Assembly (NCBI GenBank): GCA_964510635.1
Contig: CAZEBS010000008.1
Span: 30,331 to 94,330, forward strand
Reading direction: 5' to 3'
Origin: an uncultured Candidatus Bathyarchaeia archaeon
GTDB lineage: Archaea; Thermoproteota; Bathyarchaeia; Bathyarchaeales; Bathyarchaeaceae
Length of the DNA: 64,000 bases
Shown: positions 3,236 through 62,266 of the stretch, in pieces
How the letters are laid out: each line of letters begins with the position of its first letter
How positions within the stretch are numbered: position 1 is the stretch's first letter
Notes under the pieces: model-generated
Database searches by the model: none
What the model was told of the DNA's origin: nothing
What the model saw: only the letters and a program-made list of their open reading frames with translations
Position numbers and translations under genes: made by a program

Positions 3236-4155
3236 TAGTCCTTCAGGCTCCTTCCTGCCAACTTCAGGAAAACGTCTTCAAGGTTACTGTCTCTTATCAA
3301 GGCGCCCTTAAACGAGGCTTCATCAAGCACTTTAGCTAAGACGCCTCTTGGCTTATGGGCAAAAACTTGGATTTTGTCGCCGACAACATCTATTCTGGCT
3401 TTAGGAAAATTCTGGTTCAGGCACGTCATGGCTTCTTCACTGTAGAGGACTTCAAGAACCTCTTCGCCCACATGCTTCTTGACCATGTCCGCGGGCTTGC
3501 CTTTTTCGATGATTTTACCGTGGTCCATAATGATTGTTCGGTCGCAGAGCTGAGCTGCCTCATCCATGTAATGGGTAGTCAGTATGACTGTGACCTTTTG
3601 TTTCTGCAGGTTCCGAATCTTGGTCCATATCAGGTGACGAGCCTGCGGGTCTAAACCTGTTGTCGGCTCATCCAGAATCAGTATCTGGGGCTCATTCATC
3701 AAGGCTCTGGCAAGAATCAGTCTGCGTCTCATTCCGCCAGAAAGAGCGGTAATTATGGTGTCTCTCTTCTCTTCCAGCTGCATAAACTTGAGCAGTTCCT
3801 CCGCCTTTGTTTTTGCTTTATTTTTCGGAATGTCATAGTATCTGGCGTAGACTATAAGGTTCTGGAAAACTGTAAAATCTGGGTCCAAGTTGTCTTCTTG
3901 GGGCGCCACGCCAATTAGGGCTTTAATTTCCCTGTTGCGTTCTGTAACATCCATTCCAGCTAACTCTAATTTGCCGCTGGTTAAAGGAGAAACACTTTGG
4001 ATCATTCTCATGATTGTTGTTTTTCCTGCCCCGTTGGGTCCAAGAAAGCCGAAGCTTTCGCCTTTAAGAATTTCAAAGTTGATGCTGTCTACTGCAACAA
4101 GGTCACCGAACTTTTTGGTCAGGTTTTCGGCTTTGACCAGAACCTCCCGCTCCAT
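3235..4155 (-). CDS. ABC transporter ATP-binding protein (DrrA/NodI-like)
   Basis: Walker A GPNGAGKTT, signature LSGGMRRR and Walker B ILILDEPTTGLD. Confidence 0.9.
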   Translation of the reverse strand: MEREVLVKAENLTKKFGDLVAVDSINFEILKGESFGFLGPNGAGKTTIMRMIQSVSPLTSGKLELAGMDVTERNREIKALIGVAPQEDNLDPDFTVFQNLIVYARYYDIPKNKAKTKAEELLKFMQLEEKRDTIITALSGGMRRRLILARALMNEPQILILDEPTTGLDPQARHLIWTKIRNLQKQKVTVILTTHYMDEAAQLCDRTIIMDHGKIIEKGKPADMVKKHVGEEVLEVLYSEEAMTCLNQNFPKARIDVVGDKIQVFAHKPRGVLAKVLDEASFKGALIRDSNLEDVFLKLAGRSLKD

Positions 4156-54659: not shown

Positions 54660-55439
54660 TCAACCAAGAGACGAGCTGCCGACTGTTTCAAGAATTTTTT
54701 TCGGCGAAAAAGGAACAAGAACAGAGGGTTTAATGTAGCGCCCAAGCCTCGGAATCAACCCAACAGCGTCAGTTCCAAGCTTACAGAGAATAACCTGTTC
54801 TAGAACCCCCAAAGACTCAACTCTGATGATGTCACGAGAATGCCTCGACAACTTAACAGCCTCTTCGACATCAGAAAAACGGGAACCCAAAACAATCAAA
54901 CGATCAAACCTGCAGCGAACCCATCTGCTGAACAGAGAAACCTGCGCCTCAGAGAGAACTGCATCAACATATGTGTTCGCCTCTTTAGTGTCTTCAGCAA
55001 TCTTGACTTCAAGGGGCATATTGTCATACAAACAGAAGAGTTCAGCCAGCTCCAGAAGGGGAACGTGTTTGCCGTCAGCCAACTGGGCACACAACTGCTT
55101 CTCCGAAACAACAGCATCCGTAACTTGTGGAGAAAACACTCCAAAATCAACATAAAGCTCCTTTTTGCTTTTGCTGGAAAAAACTACTTTACCCTGCACC
55201 GTAGAGAACTTTTTCAGCTTGTCCAACGAAACGGGCGCTAACCCGATTTCTTGGTCAAGCAAACTTAAAGCTGCGGTTTCATCCTCGCCCGAGACCTCTA
55301 GTTGCATCCATCCGCGGTCTGTTGCGCCAACTAAACGCAACTGGACTTCAAGTCCGCTGACCAAATCTGAATATTGTTTCTCGAAGATTTCAGGGGCGCC
55401 TGAACCGTAAAGCTTCTCAAGGATTGTGACTGTCGGCAT
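54660..55439 (-). CDS. conserved archaeal hypothetical protein (possibly DUF2110-like)
   Basis: A 259-aa ORF in an operon-like array with the HD, TFE, Trm56 and HflX genes. The family assignment is from memory only. Confidence 0.4.
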   Translation of the reverse strand: MPTVTILEKLYGSGAPEIFEKQYSDLVSGLEVQLRLVGATDRGWMQLEVSGEDETAALSLLDQEIGLAPVSLDKLKKFSTVQGKVVFSSKSKKELYVDFGVFSPQVTDAVVSEKQLCAQLADGKHVPLLELAELFCLYDNMPLEVKIAEDTKEANTYVDAVLSEAQVSLFSRWVRCRFDRLIVLGSRFSDVEEAVKLSRHSRDIIRVESLGVLEQVILCKLGTDAVGLIPRLGRYIKPSVLVPFSPKKILETVGSSSLG

Positions 55440-55971
55440 CTGAATCGCCTATTAAAGGAACAAGCTCTTCGTGGAGCCTTATAATTCGATCTATGGCAGG
55501 ATGGTTCTCGCCTAGTTCTCTGGAAAACTTGTCTAATGTCTTTACTATGGGCACCACCCTGCATCCCTCAATCAGCTTGTCAGCGTAGGTCACAAGCTTT
55601 TCTTCCAGAGTTGTTGGAAGATAATCCTTCACTGGCCAACCAAGCTCTTTTGCTTCTTCAGCGGTTATGCCCCCGCCAATATGACGCCCAATAATAGACA
55701 CGACAGATTCAGGCAAATCCAGGGACTGGGCAATTTCCACGCCAGCAATCGAGTGATTTATGCCATGAGTTTTCGAGCGCCCAATATCATGAAGAAGAGC
55801 GCCAACCTCAACCAGCTCAACATCAACATTCGATCCTCTCTTTTTGCAGGATTCAGCAAACTTCACAGCAAGAGCAGAAACCGCCTTACAATGGGCAATG
55901 ACCTTTTCTGAGCATCCACATTCAGAAAGAAGGGTTAAAGCCTTCTGGGCTGAGGGCAGTTTCTCATTCAC
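55417..55971 (-). CDS. HD/HDIG-domain phosphohydrolase
   Basis: It has H...LLHDIGR...H motifs and overlaps both neighbouring genes. Confidence 0.75.
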   Translation of the reverse strand: MNEKLPSAQKALTLLSECGCSEKVIAHCKAVSALAVKFAESCKKRGSNVDVELVEVGALLHDIGRSKTHGINHSIAGVEIAQSLDLPESVVSIIGRHIGGGITAEEAKELGWPVKDYLPTTLEEKLVTYADKLIEGCRVVPIVKTLDKFSRELGENHPAIDRIIRLHEELVPLIGDSDADSHNP

Positions 55972-56494
55972 CTAATTCCTTCCTCAGCGCCTCAACTCGT
56001 TCCTGTAAGGACGTTTTCAGTTTCTCATTATCAAAATGCATCAATAGTTTGTTGCATCTGGGGCAACGAAAAACAAGTTCCATAGCTTCTTCAAAGGGAA
56101 TACGCTTGCAGCCCTCTGTGCCGCAGTAGTAAAAGTCATGGTTTTGCTCATATGTGAGGCGTGTTTCCAGCTTTTCTAGAACACGCCGCTTCTGGTTCAA
56201 GATGAAGCCTGCAAGCTGGTCAAGCTGGAGTCTCCAGTGGAAGATAAACCATCCAGTGGTTTTGTCTCGTGACCGTCTTAGGCCGACTAATGAATGGTCG
56301 TAGAGTTTGTAGAGGATTTTGCGGACGGTGTTGAGTCGTATCTCTGTTTGCTGTGCAATCTCATCGTCTGTGGTTTCGCCTACTCCTCTGAGGACATTGA
56401 CGATTTGAACTGCCTCTTCGCCGCCGAAAGCTTCAGCAACCTTTTGTAAAGTTTTATCATCCACGAAAGTCAACATCGAAATCCTATACTCCAA
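55964..56494 (-). CDS. tfe: transcription factor E, alpha subunit (TFE/TFIIE-alpha homologue)
   Basis: It has a winged helix (TDDEIAQQTEIRLNTVRKILYKLYDHSLV...GWFIFHWRL) followed by a zinc ribbon (CGTEGC...CPRCN). Confidence 0.85.
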   Translation of the reverse strand: MEYRISMLTFVDDKTLQKVAEAFGGEEAVQIVNVLRGVGETTDDEIAQQTEIRLNTVRKILYKLYDHSLVGLRRSRDKTTGWFIFHWRLQLDQLAGFILNQKRRVLEKLETRLTYEQNHDFYYCGTEGCKRIPFEEAMELVFRCPRCNKLLMHFDNEKLKTSLQERVEALRKELGE

Positions 56495-56551: not shown

Positions 56552-57097
56552 TTAGGCTTCAACGACTTTTTTGCCTCTGACCTGAGGTACTATCTTCATT
56601 TTCGCGTTGCCAGCAAAATCCTTTGAAAGCTCCTGTCCCTCAAAATAGCGGTCAAGAAAAACTGCCAAGCTGGAGCATTCTGAGTGGGGCTGGTTTCCCA
56701 CGGCAACATTGAAGTCTGAAACGGATTCGTTGTAGAAATCAGGGGGCACTTTTTGGCTGCCCACAATAACCATCACATCCTTCTTTGTTTCTCTTATTCT
56801 TTTCATGACGTCGCTTGTTTGGATGTTTTCTCCATACGCGGTGAGGTGGACGGTAACCCCATTGTTTGCTTTCCATTCCTTGACTACACGCTTCCAGGGT
56901 TTTCCCATCTCGAAACTGAAGTTGCCTCCCCACCGTTCCATAACCCTTTCGAGGGTTTCTTTGACTTTAGTGTCCTTTATGTCTGCCATTATGAAGCCGG
57001 AAGCGCCTAAGGCACGGGCAGTCAATGCCACATGTGAGGTTAACCGTTGGTCTCTGTGCCTGTGTCCCCATCTCAGAATAACAACTTTAGGCTTCAC
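56552..57097 (-). CDS. trm56: tRNA (cytidine56-2'-O)-methyltransferase aTrm56
   Basis: The segment VVILRWGHRHRDQRLTSHVALTARALGASG is typical of aTrm56 (SPOUT family). The track ORF was trimmed to the GTG at 57097, because the 25-aa extension overlaps the end of HflX. Confidence 0.75.
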   Translation of the reverse strand: MKPKVVILRWGHRHRDQRLTSHVALTARALGASGFIMADIKDTKVKETLERVMERWGGNFSFEMGKPWKRVVKEWKANNGVTVHLTAYGENIQTSDVMKRIRETKKDVMVIVGSQKVPPDFYNESVSDFNVAVGNQPHSECSSLAVFLDRYFEGQELSKDFAGNAKMKIVPQVRGKKVVEA

Positions 57098-58862
57098 GGT
57101 TAAATTCTCCTCCCAGCTTTTCCACGCGCCCCTGAACCCTGTCCGCCAACCAAGGAATCGCCCTGAAAACACCCTTCACAAACTCCCCCTCATATTCTAT
57201 GTTCTGGACGTGGGCACGCTCAAACAGCTGCGAAACCAATGCCATGGATTCATTACTGATTTTCACGGAAAACGATGCCTCCACAAAACTTTCGAGGTAT
57301 CTTACAATCTGTTGCTTCAACACATCTATGTTGGTTCCATGTAATGCTGAAATTTGAACAGGATTTGGTGCATGCTCCTTCAGTAACTCGGTTTTGCGTT
57401 GTAGTTCGTCTTTTTCGAGCATGTCGATTTTGTTGAGTACCGTTACTATGGGTATTCCTGTTGCTCCAATCTGTTCGATGGTGTCCAGGCTGCAAGAGAG
57501 CTTCCGTTCAATGTCCTCGTCTGGTTCATTCATGTCAACAACCAAAATAATTACGTCTGAAAGGATGGTTTCTTCAAGGGTGGAGTGGAAGGCTTTGACC
57601 AACTTTAGGGGCAGACGGTCAATGAAGCCAACAGTGTCAGTCAACAAAACCTTTCTTTTATTAAACTCCACAGCCCGGGTTGTCGTGGAAAGAGTGGTAA
57701 AGACTGCATCGTCAACAGGAACCGTTTCTTCAGTAAGCAAATTAAACAGTGAACTTTTACCCGCGTTAGTGTAACCCGCCAAAGAAACCGAAACAAAACC
57801 CAGAACATCCCTTCGGGTCCGATGCAGCTGCCTTTCCTCACGCTTCTTTTTCAGTTTTCCTTCGATGGCAGTGATTCGTCGCTTCACAGCCTCAAAATAA
57901 ACATCAACTTCATACTTGCCTAACCCCATAAAGCCGGGCTGTTCCTCCATCCTAGCCAGCTTCACACGCTCCTTTGCCCTAGACAACTCATACCTGAGGC
58001 TAGCTAACTGAATCTGAAGCTCTGCCTCGTATGTTGAGGCTCGCTTGGAAAAGATTTCAAGTATGAGCTGGAAGCGGTCGATAGCCATTACTCCTGTGGC
58101 TTTAGCCAGATTGTAGGCTTGAAACGGCGTCAGCGTGTTGTCGAAAATAACCTTCTCGGAGCCAGTTTCTTTCACCAAATCGGCTAGTTCCCTTACTTTT
58201 CCTCGTCCAATCTGGTACCTAGGATCCCGTTTTCTGATTTGCTCAATGGAACCTACCGCAGTGTATCCTGCTGCCGCGGTGAGGCTCCTGAGTTCATCTA
58301 GGCTTGAAGGCTCTGACGATAGCCGCCGCTGGACGATGATTGCCTTCGTTACTTCTTTGCCTCCCTTGTCCCTCACCTTAAACTGAATAAGGTCTCCTAA
58401 GGTTGTTCCACGGGGTTTAGATGACAAAGCAGGCTGAACTTTAGGCTCCTGAGCAGGCACACGAAGCTTAATCTTCAGTGCATGCTCCAGCTTTTCTGCA
58501 AGAGCCAGATCAGGAATCATTTTGCCGCTTTCAATCTTGCGTATAACCGAAACTTTCTCCCGAATCTTTCTACCCAAGTCCTCATGGCTCATTTCCAACT
58601 CTCGTCTAGCCTTTCTCACTCGTTGACCAAGGTCGCTTGCAAGCTCTAAGCTTTCAGTCACTGTAGGCATCTGCTGTCTCTTCGAGTAAGAAATTGGTGT
58701 TGCCTGACGTTTTGTTACCCTTCTTGTGCGGGGCTGAGGTTTGGGTTCCCAGTAACCAGAACTTAACTTTCCACATTTCGAGCAGACAGTCATCTTGGCT
58801 CCTTCAATTATCGCCCTGACTGGGGTGCCAAATATTTGACGACCACATACTTCACATTGCAT
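57087..58862 (-). CDS. hflX: fusion protein: aMBF1 (zinc ribbon plus XRE-type HTH) N-terminus joined to HflX GTPase
   Basis: Residues 1 to about 150 are MQCEVCGRQIFG...VCSKCG plus the HTH MSHEDLGRKIREKVSVIRKIESGKMIPDLALAEKLEHAL. The rest is the HflX N-domain (IGRGKVRELADLV, AELQIQLASLRYEL) and the G domain (GYTNAGKSSLFN, DTVGFI, NKID). Confidence 0.85.
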   Translation of the reverse strand: MQCEVCGRQIFGTPVRAIIEGAKMTVCSKCGKLSSGYWEPKPQPRTRRVTKRQATPISYSKRQQMPTVTESLELASDLGQRVRKARRELEMSHEDLGRKIREKVSVIRKIESGKMIPDLALAEKLEHALKIKLRVPAQEPKVQPALSSKPRGTTLGDLIQFKVRDKGGKEVTKAIIVQRRLSSEPSSLDELRSLTAAAGYTAVGSIEQIRKRDPRYQIGRGKVRELADLVKETGSEKVIFDNTLTPFQAYNLAKATGVMAIDRFQLILEIFSKRASTYEAELQIQLASLRYELSRAKERVKLARMEEQPGFMGLGKYEVDVYFEAVKRRITAIEGKLKKKREERQLHRTRRDVLGFVSVSLAGYTNAGKSSLFNLLTEETVPVDDAVFTTLSTTTRAVEFNKRKVLLTDTVGFIDRLPLKLVKAFHSTLEETILSDVIILVVDMNEPDEDIERKLSCSLDTIEQIGATGIPIVTVLNKIDMLEKDELQRKTELLKEHAPNPVQISALHGTNIDVLKQQIVRYLESFVEASFSVKISNESMALVSQLFERAHVQNIEYEGEFVKGVFRAIPWLADRVQGRVEKLGGEFNREA

Positions 58863-59048
58863 GAGAAGTCATCTCCTGAACTATTTCATCACAAGTCGCT
58901 TCTTTATACTTGTCGATTTTATATAACTTGACCGTTAAGAAGCCCCCCAAACCCCCTTAGAAGCAATAGAGAGCTCTTCGTTTTGACAAAAAAGCCGCAA
59001 ATTATTTAGGGGAACGAGAACTATCATATATTGTGGAGAGATGTTTTA

Positions 59049-59288
59049 ATGCCTATGGCTTTTGTGTTGATAAATACTGAGATAGGGTCGGAAAACGAAG
59101 TTTTGAATGAGTTGAAGAAGATCGATGCAGTTAAGGAAGCTTACATGGTTTACGGTGTCTACGATGTCGTAGCAAAAGTCGGAGCAGACACTATGGACAA
59201 ACTCAAAGAGATCGTCACATGGAATGTGAGAAGGCTGGACAAAGTTCGGTCAACCCTCACAATGATAGTAATCGAGGGGCAAAAGTAG
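59049..59288 (+). CDS. stand-alone Lrp/AsnC ligand-binding (RAM) domain protein
   Basis: MPMAFVLINTEIGSENEVLNELKKIDAVKEAYMVYGVYDVVAKV is the typical AsnC_trans_reg fold pattern. The ATG at 59049 is preferred over the track start at 59031. Confidence 0.7.
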   Translation: MPMAFVLINTEIGSENEVLNELKKIDAVKEAYMVYGVYDVVAKVGADTMDKLKEIVTWNVRRLDKVRSTLTMIVIEGQK

Positions 59289-59398
59289 CCTCCACCTCCC
59301 CCTTTTATGTCCGCCTTCTTTAATCCGAAAGAAACAACTGTCACATCAAAGTACTTATCCGCCTAACAATCTAACTACAGGCATGAGCGGAAGCCAAA

Positions 59399-60724
59399 AT
59401 GGTTAAGCTGCACATAGGATTCGACGATACTGATTCACCAAACGGAGGATGCACCACCCACATAGCCGCCCTCCTCGTCGAAAAATTATGCAACATGAAT
59501 GTCTTCTTCACAGATTACCCCAACCTAGTCAGGCTTAACCCAAATGTTCCATGGAAAACCCGAGGCAACGGAGCCCTCTGCCTCCGAATAGAATGCCATG
59601 AAGACACCGTAGACGCCATCAAGGAAACAGTCCTAGATACAGTCGAAGCAAACTCTGACCTAGGTTACAGCGGAACCGACCCCGGCGTTGTCTTCCTTTT
59701 AGGGGATGTTCCCAAGCAAGTCAGGGAATTCGCCAAAGAAGCTGAGCAGCGGATAATGAAAATTGATGATGCCTTGAGCCTTGTTAAGGGAGTTGGCGCT
59801 GAGGCTGTGGGATTCAAGAAGAGGAGAGGGCTCATCGGAGGCTTAGCCGCAATCGGCGAGGAAATGAAGGGAGACCACACCTTCGAAATCATAAGTTACA
59901 GGATGGCAGAAAATCGTGGCAAACCGCGCCGCGTAAACCCTCAATCCGTCAAAGCTATGGACACAAAATCTAATGATACATTCAATAACGTAGACCCTGA
60001 AACGGGGAGAATCCTGATTACACCCAGAGGACCTGACCCCATCCTTTGCGGAATCAGAGGCGAAACCCCTGAGGCAGTTAAACATGCGTATAATTTGGTT
60101 CTCAAGGAGGAACCTGTTGAAAGATGGATGATTTTCCGAACAAATCAAGGAACGGATGCTCACCTACGGCGCGTCAGTGCAGTTAAGGATGTACAGCCCT
60201 ACAACCCCGTCGTTGCCGAGGGGCAGATATCCAAGGAACCACGGGTAATCCAAGGTGGCCACGTCATCTTTTCCATCAAAGATGATACCGGAGAGGTGGC
60301 TTGTGCTGTCTATGCGCCCACAGGAGATCTCTGTAAAACAGCAAGAAAACTTGTGGTAGGAGATATGGTGAAGGTCTTCGGAGGTGTCCGTTCCCCTTCT
60401 TCAAAACTTCAGTTGACTATCAATGTGGAGAAGCTGATGATCCAAAAGTTGGTTCCCCGAACAACGGTTGTTAATCCTGTTTGTCCTGAATGCGGGAAAA
60501 GAATGAAGTCTATGGGAAAGAATCAGGGTTTCAGGTGCGACAAGTGCGGCTTCCGTTCCTCTCAGCTACAGAAGCTGGAAGTCAAGGAAGAGCGTGGAGT
60601 TGATGTGGGACTTTACATTACGTCGCCAAGGTCTCAGAGGCATCTGACCAAGCCCCATTGCCGATACGGAAAAGAAAAAACTGGTGCCCCCCAAGAGCTG
60701 ATAGCCGGCTGGCATTCTCCTTGA
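59399..60724 (+). CDS. tiaS: tRNA(Ile2) 2-agmatinylcytidine synthetase TiaS
   Basis: It has the N-terminal motif IGFDDTDSPNGGCTTH, an OB-fold region, and the C-terminal zinc ribbon CPECGKRM...CDKCG. Confidence 0.85.
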   Translation: MVKLHIGFDDTDSPNGGCTTHIAALLVEKLCNMNVFFTDYPNLVRLNPNVPWKTRGNGALCLRIECHEDTVDAIKETVLDTVEANSDLGYSGTDPGVVFLLGDVPKQVREFAKEAEQRIMKIDDALSLVKGVGAEAVGFKKRRGLIGGLAAIGEEMKGDHTFEIISYRMAENRGKPRRVNPQSVKAMDTKSNDTFNNVDPETGRILITPRGPDPILCGIRGETPEAVKHAYNLVLKEEPVERWMIFRTNQGTDAHLRRVSAVKDVQPYNPVVAEGQISKEPRVIQGGHVIFSIKDDTGEVACAVYAPTGDLCKTARKLVVGDMVKVFGGVRSPSSKLQLTINVEKLMIQKLVPRTTVVNPVCPECGKRMKSMGKNQGFRCDKCGFRSSQLQKLEVKEERGVDVGLYITSPRSQRHLTKPHCRYGKEKTGAPQELIAGWHSP

Positions 60725-60835
60725 AAACCTGAATAAAGTCTAGGGTAGGGCTAGTGACTTTTTGAAGCTTAACGGTTTTTTGACAGTAAACTTAAATGCG
60801 TCTGCAGAAAACTTACGAAGGAAAAAGGGAAACTC

Positions 60836-62266
60836 ATGAAGTTTTCGTTCATAAATCCGGGTCCAAATCCTGAGTTGCCTATCGAAGATGTTAAGAAGAT
60901 GGTGGGAGCAGCCCCTCCCCTAGGCATGCTCTACATAGCAACCTACCTACGAGAAAACGGCGTAGACGTTTCCATAATAGACGAGGCGCCTCAGGGCTAC
61001 TCCGTAAAAGGCACAGTGGATTGGGTGAAGAAGGAGAACCCGGACATCATAGGTTTCTCCACATGTAGCAGCTCCTGCCACAAGGCAGTGCTCCTAGCAG
61101 AAAACATCAAAAAAGAGAACCCCAACATCGTTACAGTTTTCGGCAACTTTTTTGCAACCTTCAATGCTGAACGAATTCTAACAAAGTATCCCTTTGTGGA
61201 CTTTATTGTTCGGGGAGAAGGAGAACACACCAGCCTTGAGTTGGCAAAGTGTCTAGAAAAGAACGGTGATTTGAAGAAAGTTTTGGGAATTAACTTCAGA
61301 AACAATGGTCAGATAGTTTCGACTCCTGACAGACCCTTAATCAAGGATGTTGACTCGTTGCCCTTTCCAGACAGGGAAATGCTGCCCGTCGAATACCATA
61401 ACACCACAGCTGGAATAGTTGTTGCACCAAAAAAATTCAGCGGCTTCGTCTCCTCAAGAGGCTGCCCTTTTCAATGCCGCTTCTGTGGATGCCGAAGATT
61501 AGCCCGAAACCTCTGGCGCTCCAGGTCAGTGGAGAACATAATGGAGGAGCTGCATCTTCTGTCCAGTCAAGGCTACAAACAGTTCCTTTTTGTTGACGAC
61601 AACTTCACCTTGAACCCCAAAAGAGTCATCAAACTGTGCCAGAGGCTGAAGAAGGAGAAGGTTGACATCGAATTTTTTGCTGAAGGCAGAGTTGACAATT
61701 TCTCCAGAGAGATGGTGCAGGCGCTGGTGAGGGGTAACTGCAAAATGATTTACTTTGGAATCGAAAATGCCACCCAGCGGATTCTGGATTACTATGATAA
61801 GCGGACAACCCCAAGGCAGGCGGAGGAGGCGACAGCAAAAGCTCGGAAGGCTGGAATAGACGTGATAGTTGCGTCCTTTATTTTGGGGGCTCCTAACGAA
61901 ACAAGAAAAGAGATTCAGCATACCCTAGATTTTGCACGGAAGATTCAGGTGGACATTCCCCAATTCAACATTTTAGCCACTTTTCCTGGAACCGACATCT
62001 GGGAAGAACTCAAGATGCAGGGCATCGTGGATGAGAAAAAGCACTGGGAGACAGGAGTTATGGTTTCTGAGGTTTCGCCTGATGCTGTGCCCCGCCAAGA
62101 GATTGAACAGATGATCCATGCTGCATATCAGCGATTTTTTGTTCGCCCAGACTATATTGTGAAAGAGTTAATTAAAATTGGCACAAGCTCCTATCGGCTC
62201 AATGTCTTACTTAGTAATCTGAAGAGAGCTGACGCCGTCGTCGAGGGCGTGAAAACAGTCACATAA
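60836..62266 (+). CDS. B12-binding-domain radical-SAM protein (class B), paralogue of 19104..20537
   Basis: It shares the MKFSFINP start, DIIGFS, NAERIL.KYPFVD..VRGEGE, the radical-SAM motif CPFQCRFC, and colinear similarity along the whole length. Confidence 0.8.
   Translation: MKFSFINPGPNPELPIEDVKKMVGAAPPLGMLYIATYLRENGVDVSIIDEAPQGYSVKGTVDWVKKENPDIIGFSTCSSSCHKAVLLAENIKKENPNIVTVFGNFFATFNAERILTKYPFVDFIVRGEGEHTSLELAKCLEKNGDLKKVLGINFRNNGQIVSTPDRPLIKDVDSLPFPDREMLPVEYHNTTAGIVVAPKKFSGFVSSRGCPFQCRFCGCRRLARNLWRSRSVENIMEELHLLSSQGYKQFLFVDDNFTLNPKRVIKLCQRLKKEKVDIEFFAEGRVDNFSREMVQALVRGNCKMIYFGIENATQRILDYYDKRTTPRQAEEATAKARKAGIDVIVASFILGAPNETRKEIQHTLDFARKIQVDIPQFNILATFPGTDIWEELKMQGIVDEKKHWETGVMVSEVSPDAVPRQEIEQMIHAAYQRFFVRPDYIVKELIKIGTSSYRLNVLLSNLKRADAVVEGVKTVT

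Follow-up and report, generated by a model that had tools for sequence, protein, structure and literature searches.

Archaeal MBF1 (aMBF1) of Sulfolobus binds the small ribosomal subunit through its helix-turn-helix (HTH) domain. In eukaryotes, Mbf1/EDF1 works at ribosomes that have collided (PMC7486125, PMC8848926); in bacteria, HflX splits ribosomes that have stalled (PMC6310831, PMC9900803). In the Crenarchaeota, the neighbourhood of mbf1 includes pan, hflX, tgt, tfb, tfe, and rpoG (PMC3062615 and its reference 25). Overlapping stop/start pairs with a Shine-Dalgarno (SD) motif inside the upstream gene are an established signature of termination-reinitiation in both archaea and bacteria (PMC6728339), the overlaps being of the ATGA and TGATG types (PMC6728339, PMC10666635). 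The locus analysed here lies in a 64-kb stretch of DNA from an uncultured Candidatus Bathyarchaeia archaeon (contig CAZEBS010000008.1, positions 30,331 to 94,330 of the forward strand; hereafter the window, the whole of the stretch, to which all coordinates refer unless another locus is named), in which mbf1 and hflX are read as one. The joined genes form a single open reading frame (ORF) of 591 amino acids (aa) without interruption on the minus strand (57087..58862; ATG at 58862, TAA at 57087–57089), as an earlier sequence-only reading of this DNA had described; the protein has records in both NCBI and Logan. In the Bathyarchaeia, mbf1 and hflX are separate co-directional genes with no spacer, overlapping in different frames, and it is probable that a single, recent extra G fused them in this genome and that the fusion is not an architecture under selection.

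The fusion can be traced to a GGG run at 58363..58365 (minus strand), for which relatives have GG in alignments to three loci (L002, L004, and L055). At 58363–58365 the window reads AAGGGAGGC and relatives of ~90% identity read AAGGAGGC, a difference of one extra G. In the DNA alignment to L002, a metagenome contig from the Joint Genome Institute (JGI), this is the single difference at the junction (window, GACAAGGGAGGC; L002, GACAA-GGAGGC), and in a 49-sequence alignment of the junction the extra column is present in the window alone. With one G fewer, mbf1 ends in ...KEAKK followed by TAA, as it does in L002, and hflX goes on in the −1 frame. In the window the extra G takes this former mbf1 stop (TAA, 58349..58351, minus strand), which the relatives read in frame, out of register, so that the two ORFs run together as one of 591 aa. 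The sequence-only reading had placed the critical site at 58380–58440; the actual site is 58363–58365, where the extra G falls at the 5′ edge of the SD motif of hflX and within a stretch of ~28 nucleotides (nt) in which both frames are open. Each signal that marks two separate genes is unaltered in the window. The SD motif GGAGG in the 3′ end of mbf1 (58360..58364, minus strand) is intact, and the ACG that encodes Thr172 of the fused ORF and is the putative hflX start (58347..58349, minus strand) still overlaps the former stop as TAACG. The persistence of all these signals, and the absence of the change from every relative, place the insertion in the very recent past.

The set of related loci comprised 48 GTDB species representatives of the Bathyarchaeia (one genome per species) and six JGI metagenome contigs, 54 in all; reading frames were compared at 49 loci (the 48 species representatives and L002), and the other five JGI contigs were scored for GG or GGG. 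In each of the 48 species loci, hflX lies directly after mbf1, within about 1.76–1.78 kb. Relative to mbf1, the hflX frame is −1 in 47 of the 49 loci, +1 in two, and in frame in none, such that the window alone has the two genes in frame. A survey of relatives for genes that are adjacent but separate had been suggested together with the original description of the ORF, and at 49/49 loci the two genes adjoin, are separate, and are out of frame. The closest relative with DNA context, L002, has the same gene order with mbf1 (172 aa) and hflX separate, and an exact-junction DNA scan of JGI metagenomes that allowed GG or GGG returned five contigs, all with GG. The frame relation itself is not conserved, the start signals alone being kept, since the two +1 loci (L041:3473-3577 and L042:3479-3583) still have the SD, with ATA or ATG at the start position. 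A stand-alone mbf1 of the usual size (about 160–180 aa) with its own stop occurs in 48 of the 49 relatives and not in the window, which has no in-frame stop until 57087. At L037:3001-3530, mbf1 has an in-frame TAG in the linker, between ...LLAPAT and EKLPKQ..., upstream of the stop that follows TFTLGDLIKSKEKAEATK; this TAG could be a sequencing error, the mark of a pseudogene, or a recoded stop.

Protein searches likewise returned separate genes. When the whole protein was used as query, the best 120 homologues were without exception stand-alone HflX proteins (362–460 aa, ≤93% identity) from the Bathyarchaeota. The 90%-identity cluster of the fused protein has 55 members; among those listed, the other HflX-named or unnamed members are 354–417 aa, all much shorter than 591 aa, and one is a fragment of 123 aa annotated as putative transcription factor. 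With the junction-spanning residues 1–307 as query, no other genuine MBF1-HflX fusion was found in 5.8 billion clusters, nor was one found in an exhaustive search of 1.84 billion representatives; the architecture is undescribed, and the sequence-only reading had likewise known of no description. As no relative is in frame and no genuine fusion came from the cluster or representative searches, the fusion is a singleton. The sole other junction-spanning protein, P0264 (178 aa, from the representative library), was judged a frameshift-error artefact because its MBF1 tail is read in the −1 frame and both of its ends are garbled, and it illustrates the ease with which the mbf1-hflX pair gives rise to spurious fusions.

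The organism could itself possess GG, with separate mbf1 and hflX, and the third G could be a consensus error introduced in sequencing or assembly. Such an artefact would fit the occurrence of the fusion in 0/49 related loci and 0/5 metagenome contigs, the nature of the change (a short run of G longer by 1 nt), and the unaltered state of all two-gene signals, and the garbling of P0264 shows that frameshift errors can mimic fusions. However, a GGG run is too short for a typical homopolymer-error site, and apart from this site the region shows no frame-breaking indels against its relatives of 89–90% nucleotide identity. In comparisons of the window with L002, L004, and L055 (5.4–7.8 kb each), all other indels relative to L002 and L055 are intergenic or a multiple of three, from which it follows that the window assembly is not indel-prone; the comparison with L004 adds a single gap of 1 nt, at ~56482 near the start of TFE. 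An identical 2514-bp sequence, including the GGG, is present on Logan contig SRR14802572_550619 (a separate assembly, of run SRR14802572), and the fused protein is also recorded from an NCBI contig of 99,699 bp, placing the same G in two separate assemblies. Because the Logan assembly carries the same G, the extra base is probably genuine DNA and an artefact is unlikely.

By their profile matches, both halves of the fused ORF are ordinary members of their respective families. The aMBF1 module (residues 1–166; 58365..58862, minus strand) begins with a zinc ribbon (MQCEVCG...CSKCG) whose cysteines C3, C6, C27, and C30 form two CxxC pairs at the N-terminus, continues with an XRE/Cro-type HTH (Pfam HTH_3, E = 1.4e-9; residues 82–133, window 58464-58619, minus strand), and ends in a C-terminal tail with the motif TLGDLI. 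Residues 2–162 match positions 1–159 of the 159 in the NCBIfam model of aMBF1 (TIGR00270; 142.7 bits, cutoff 110), and relatives of the module in the PDB are 2mez (MBF) and 6zvi and 6zvh (both Mbf1/EDF1). The HflX module (residues 172–591; 57087..58349, minus strand), which would be 420 aa if made alone, is laid out as an N domain, a helical middle domain, a G domain, and a weak C-terminal domain. Residues 174–522 match positions 2–350 of the 351 in TIGR03156 (HflX; 304.2 bits, cutoff 216.75). The Pfam matches to GTP-bdg_N (residues 186–271, 86.8 bits) and GTP-bdg_M (residues 274–351, 54.2 bits) exceed their cutoffs and are followed by MMR_HSR1, the G domain (residues 359–478, 69.6 bits), while the match to the C-terminal domain, HflX_C, falls below its cutoff (21 bits against 26.4). 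The G motifs G1 (GYTNAGKS), G3 (DTVG), and G4 (NKID) are all in the ORF, and PDB relatives of the module are 5ady (Escherichia coli), 2qtf (Sulfolobus solfataricus), and 8a57. The sequence-only reading had recognised a complete MBF1 module and a full HflX with its N domain and G1, G3, and G4 motifs, and the zinc-ribbon cysteines, HTH_3, above-cutoff models, and motifs agree with it on both. Its linker of ~30 aa is instead the native C-terminal tail of aMBF1, including TLGDLI; the true junction, where the fused protein reads ...FKVRDKGGKEVTK..., is 6–9 residues, since the aMBF1 model extends to residue 162 and HflX starts at residue 172.

Two complete modules, both scoring above curated cutoffs, are what would be expected of an evolved bifunctional protein, a selected MBF1-HflX fusion that keeps a sensor of stalls on the small subunit tied to a splitting GTPase. 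The genes are also linked and apparently coupled across an archaeal class and are neighbours in the Crenarchaeota (PMC3062615) and the Methanomethylicia, the kind of linkage that typically precedes 'Rosetta-stone' fusions. Yet no second genuine instance turned up in the relatives, the metagenome contigs, or the cluster and representative searches, and the closest relatives, at ~90% nucleotide identity, lack the fusion. The SD, the ACG, and the former stop are moreover the same as in the unfused relatives, which implies that there has been no time for selection or that none is acting. A bifunctional protein of this kind is thus very unlikely, and in its form as a conserved architecture it is largely refuted; what the sequence-only reading had taken for an evolved architecture is a singleton produced by one extra G in a gene overlap. 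Most likely, as far as can be judged from the sequence comparisons, the insertion is a genuine strain-level mutation and not an architecture shaped by selection, and it could be tolerated, mildly harmful, or advantageous.

The relatives also indicate how hflX may be translated when the two genes are separate. With the junctions aligned on the conserved first strand of HflX (KAIIVQRR), an exact GGAGG lies within the 3′ end of mbf1 in 44 of the 49 loci, followed by the start position after a spacer of 10 nt in 37 loci and 7 nt in seven loci, the latter from one clade. For comparison, mbf1 and trm56 in the same operon have spacings from SD to start of 9 and 11 nt, respectively. Read in the mbf1 frame, the GGAGG of hflX always falls as NNG-GAG-GNN, which points to conservation at the level of the nucleotides. 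The codon at the start position is ACG in 37 loci, ATA in eight, and ATG in four. All of the threonine codons at this position are ACG, a codon that accounts for only 17.8% of those in the rest of hflX. In the hflX frame, amino-acid entropy is 2.6–2.8 bits at positions −3 to −1, where some loci have stops, and at most ~1.5 bits from position 0 to +9; conservation of the frame begins exactly at the ACG position. Two loci (L035 and L046) have a stop codon in the hflX frame immediately 5′ of the ACG.

The mbf1 stop and the hflX start position overlap by 1 nt in 20 loci (TAACG type, with L008 a classic TAATG) and by 4 nt in seven loci (ATAA or ATGA, the latter in L028 and L043), while in 18 loci the overlap is longer (13–16 nt) and mbf1 extends 10–13 nt beyond. 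In most species, the hflX frame holds no ATG, GTG, or TTG ahead of the conserved first strand. Several metagenome HflX proteins begin MKAIIVQRR, and the HflX of a Methanomethylicia locus begins MRAIIV, with ATG at the homologous position. Taken at the level of sequence, the stop/start overlap and the internal SD resemble those of termination-reinitiation coupling, here with a near-cognate restart codon.

In the relatives, gene callers put the HflX start at a dozen differing positions, mostly within the N domain, because most species have no ATG, GTG, or TTG before the first strand and the apparent start, ACG or ATA, is not accepted by the callers. Among the homologues (P0001–P0120), the N-termini of HflX are inconsistent (MEQVRK, VGS, LDEL, VVQRR, and LVKETG) and most cut into the N domain; this inconsistency concerns loci L002–L049 and L051, with junctions at about 3460–3590 in most. 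Several records sourced from NCBI have a methionine where the DNA has isoleucine (MVQRR... and MNVILVQRR), which points to the use of ATC or ATA codons as starts. A class-wide non-AUG start would therefore bring with it a systematic mis-annotation of HflX N-termini, and most Bathyarchaeia HflX entries in databases are apparently N-terminally truncated or have arbitrary starts.

The absence of a canonical start in most species, together with an hflX frame at −1 in 47/49 loci, could also be read as programmed −1 frameshifting, in which Bathyarchaeia ribosomes slip from mbf1 into hflX and would make the fusion in every species, an SD-like GGAGG could serve as the stimulator, and the present genome has hard-wired the slip. 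Programmed frameshifting was rejected, as the loci have no shared shift region, conserved slippery heptamer, or conserved RNA structure. The shift-permitting regions common to all species amount to a single nucleotide; in two loci (L035 and L046) the hflX frame is closed up to the ACG, a point at which mbf1 has already ended in at least 20 loci. A heptamer of the form X_XXY_YYZ occurs in just nine of 47 loci and at differing positions, and RNAalifold predicted zero conserved pairs in 105 nt around the junction. Upstream of the ACG, the hflX frame is not conserved as protein, and an ATG stands at the exact position of the ACG in four loci, in line with the metagenome proteins that begin MKAIIVQRR. 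Of the explanations weighed here, a programmed slip is the most improbable.

The preferred explanation, two overlapping genes joined by one recent insertion, can be put as a sequence of steps. In the two-gene state, hflX would be translated from a near-cognate start codon, mostly ACG and otherwise AUA or AUG, located 7–10 nt downstream of a near-invariant GGAGG in the last codons of mbf1. This start would often overlap the mbf1 stop, as UAACG in place of UAAUG or as AUAA in place of AUGA, and ribosomes that end mbf1 would restart on hflX, with the weak start codon keeping the rate low. In the genome of the window, ribosomes from the mbf1 AUG would read through to give MBF1-HflX, with free MBF1 lost; free HflX may still be made from the internal start, GGAGG and ACG being unaltered. 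Several observations count against parts of this explanation. The Logan contig may derive from the same read set as the metagenome-assembled genome (MAG), and a consensus or assembly error at the extra G keeps some probability. A search of the literature for ACG or AUA initiation in archaea found nothing relevant. Editing of the mRNA from C to U, by which the ACG would become AUG, was considered as well but had nothing to support it. ATC, ATA, and ATT codons at two isoleucine positions, 19–22 nt past the SD, are formal alternative starts. In the 18 loci with the longer overlap, the ACG overlaps mbf1 codons, and dual coding could partly explain the conservation there, an objection that does not apply to the 20 TAACG-type loci.

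The fused ORF heads an operon-like array, as the sequence-only reading had proposed, in which the genes for Trm56, TFE, an HD-domain protein, and a DUF2110 protein follow it in the same direction. The gene for aTrm56 (56552..57097, minus strand; Pfam Trm56, 151 bits; 181 aa in the Logan gene call) has a GTG start at 57097 that overlaps the end of hflX by 11 nt, preceded by an SD (GGAGG, 57109–57113) 11 nt upstream of the GTG. The longest-ORF listing for trm56 (56552..57172, 206 aa) is overextended. Together, mbf1, hflX, and trm56 look serially coupled. They are followed by the gene for TFE, the homologue of TFIIE-alpha (55964..56494, minus strand; Pfam TFIIE_alpha, 76.5 bits), the gene for an HD-domain protein (55417..55971, minus strand; Pfam HD, 63.8 bits), which has an 8-nt overlap with the end of TFE, and the last gene of the co-directional array, encoding a DUF2110 protein (54660..55439, minus strand; Pfam DUF2110_N and DUF2110_C). 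Upstream of the ATG of mbf1, a putative leader (58872..58926, minus strand) can be read from the sequence, with a candidate promoter in the form of a TATA-like element (TTATATAAAA, 58917–58926) and an SD-like AGGAGA (58872–58877) 9 nt ahead of the ATG. No second mbf1 was found in the 64-kb window, the sole weak tblastn match being TFB.

Divergent from mbf1, on the plus strand (59031-62266), are genes for an 85-aa AsnC/Lrp-type protein, TiaS, and a B12-binding radical-SAM enzyme. The AsnC/Lrp-type protein is a stand-alone ligand-binding domain without a DNA-binding domain, and TiaS is agmatidine synthase. The same arrangement of AsnC-type, TiaS, and radical-SAM genes is also present in the relative L002.

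Beyond the origin of the fusion, a joint role of aMBF1 and HflX is plausible by analogy, because Mbf1/EDF1 acts on collided ribosomes and HflX splits stalled ones. The sequence-only reading had derived such a role from the fusion; some support for it lies in the close coupling that the two genes keep across the relatives, and not in the fusion. By itself the fusion is weak evidence, resting on one genome and one inserted base, for which reason its entry as a new domain architecture should wait until the reads have been checked at this site. That the G is genuine and yields a working MBF1-HflX polypeptide, nature's own test of a small-subunit stall or collision sensor bound covalently to a large-subunit splitting GTPase, is rather unlikely. 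If the fused protein is real and active, both factors can work on the same ribosome, and a working fusion together with the non-AUG coupling would, if true, be the first genetic evidence of a single aMBF1-HflX ribosome-rescue module, one with tightly set relative expression. The class-wide placement of hflX on the end of mbf1, with an SD and an apparent ACG, AUA, or AUG start, offers a concrete and testable archaeal instance in which initiation or reinitiation at a non-AUG codon is conserved, and it strengthens the long-suspected functional link between the two factors. While the mbf1-hflX-tfe neighbourhood in the Crenarchaeota is already published (PMC3062615), the in-frame variant, a singleton, is new, and so is the class-wide overlap coupling with its predicted non-AUG start, the more robust of the two findings.

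Set beside the known systems, the window shares with aMBF1 (TIGR00270; PDB 2mez) the zinc ribbon, the XRE-type HTH, and the TLGDLI tail, but its copy lacks a stop of its own and runs on for 420 HflX residues, whereas those of the relatives stand alone at ~170 aa. With HflX (TIGR03156; 5ady and 2qtf) it shares the N, helical middle, and G domains with G1, G3, and G4, but its copy is N-terminally fused, and the hflX of the relatives lacks a canonical start, seemingly beginning with ACG or AUA. GTP-dependent binding of the 50S subunit and splitting of ribosomes can be proposed for the HflX of the window by homology to 5ady, 2qtf, and 8a57 only. As in the Crenarchaeota, mbf1, hflX, and tfe occur together, here with trm56, in the window, in the 48 species of the Bathyarchaeia, and at one locus of the Methanomethylicia; the Bathyarchaeia differ in that mbf1 and hflX overlap with stop/start coupling signals, and the window in that they are in frame. 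The Methanomethylicia locus (L050:1793-4686) has hflX (ATG, MRAIIVEV) with mbf1 convergent downstream and trm56 and tfe divergent upstream, and the mbf1/hflX/trm56/tfe neighbourhood thus reaches beyond the Bathyarchaeia, though in differing orientations. Like described termination-reinitiation pairs, mbf1 and hflX have 1-nt and 4-nt overlaps and a strong SD in the 3′ end of the upstream gene, but they depart from these pairs in the longer overlap (13–16 nt) of 18 loci and, in 45 of the 49 loci, in a restart codon that is not AUG, GUG, or UUG.

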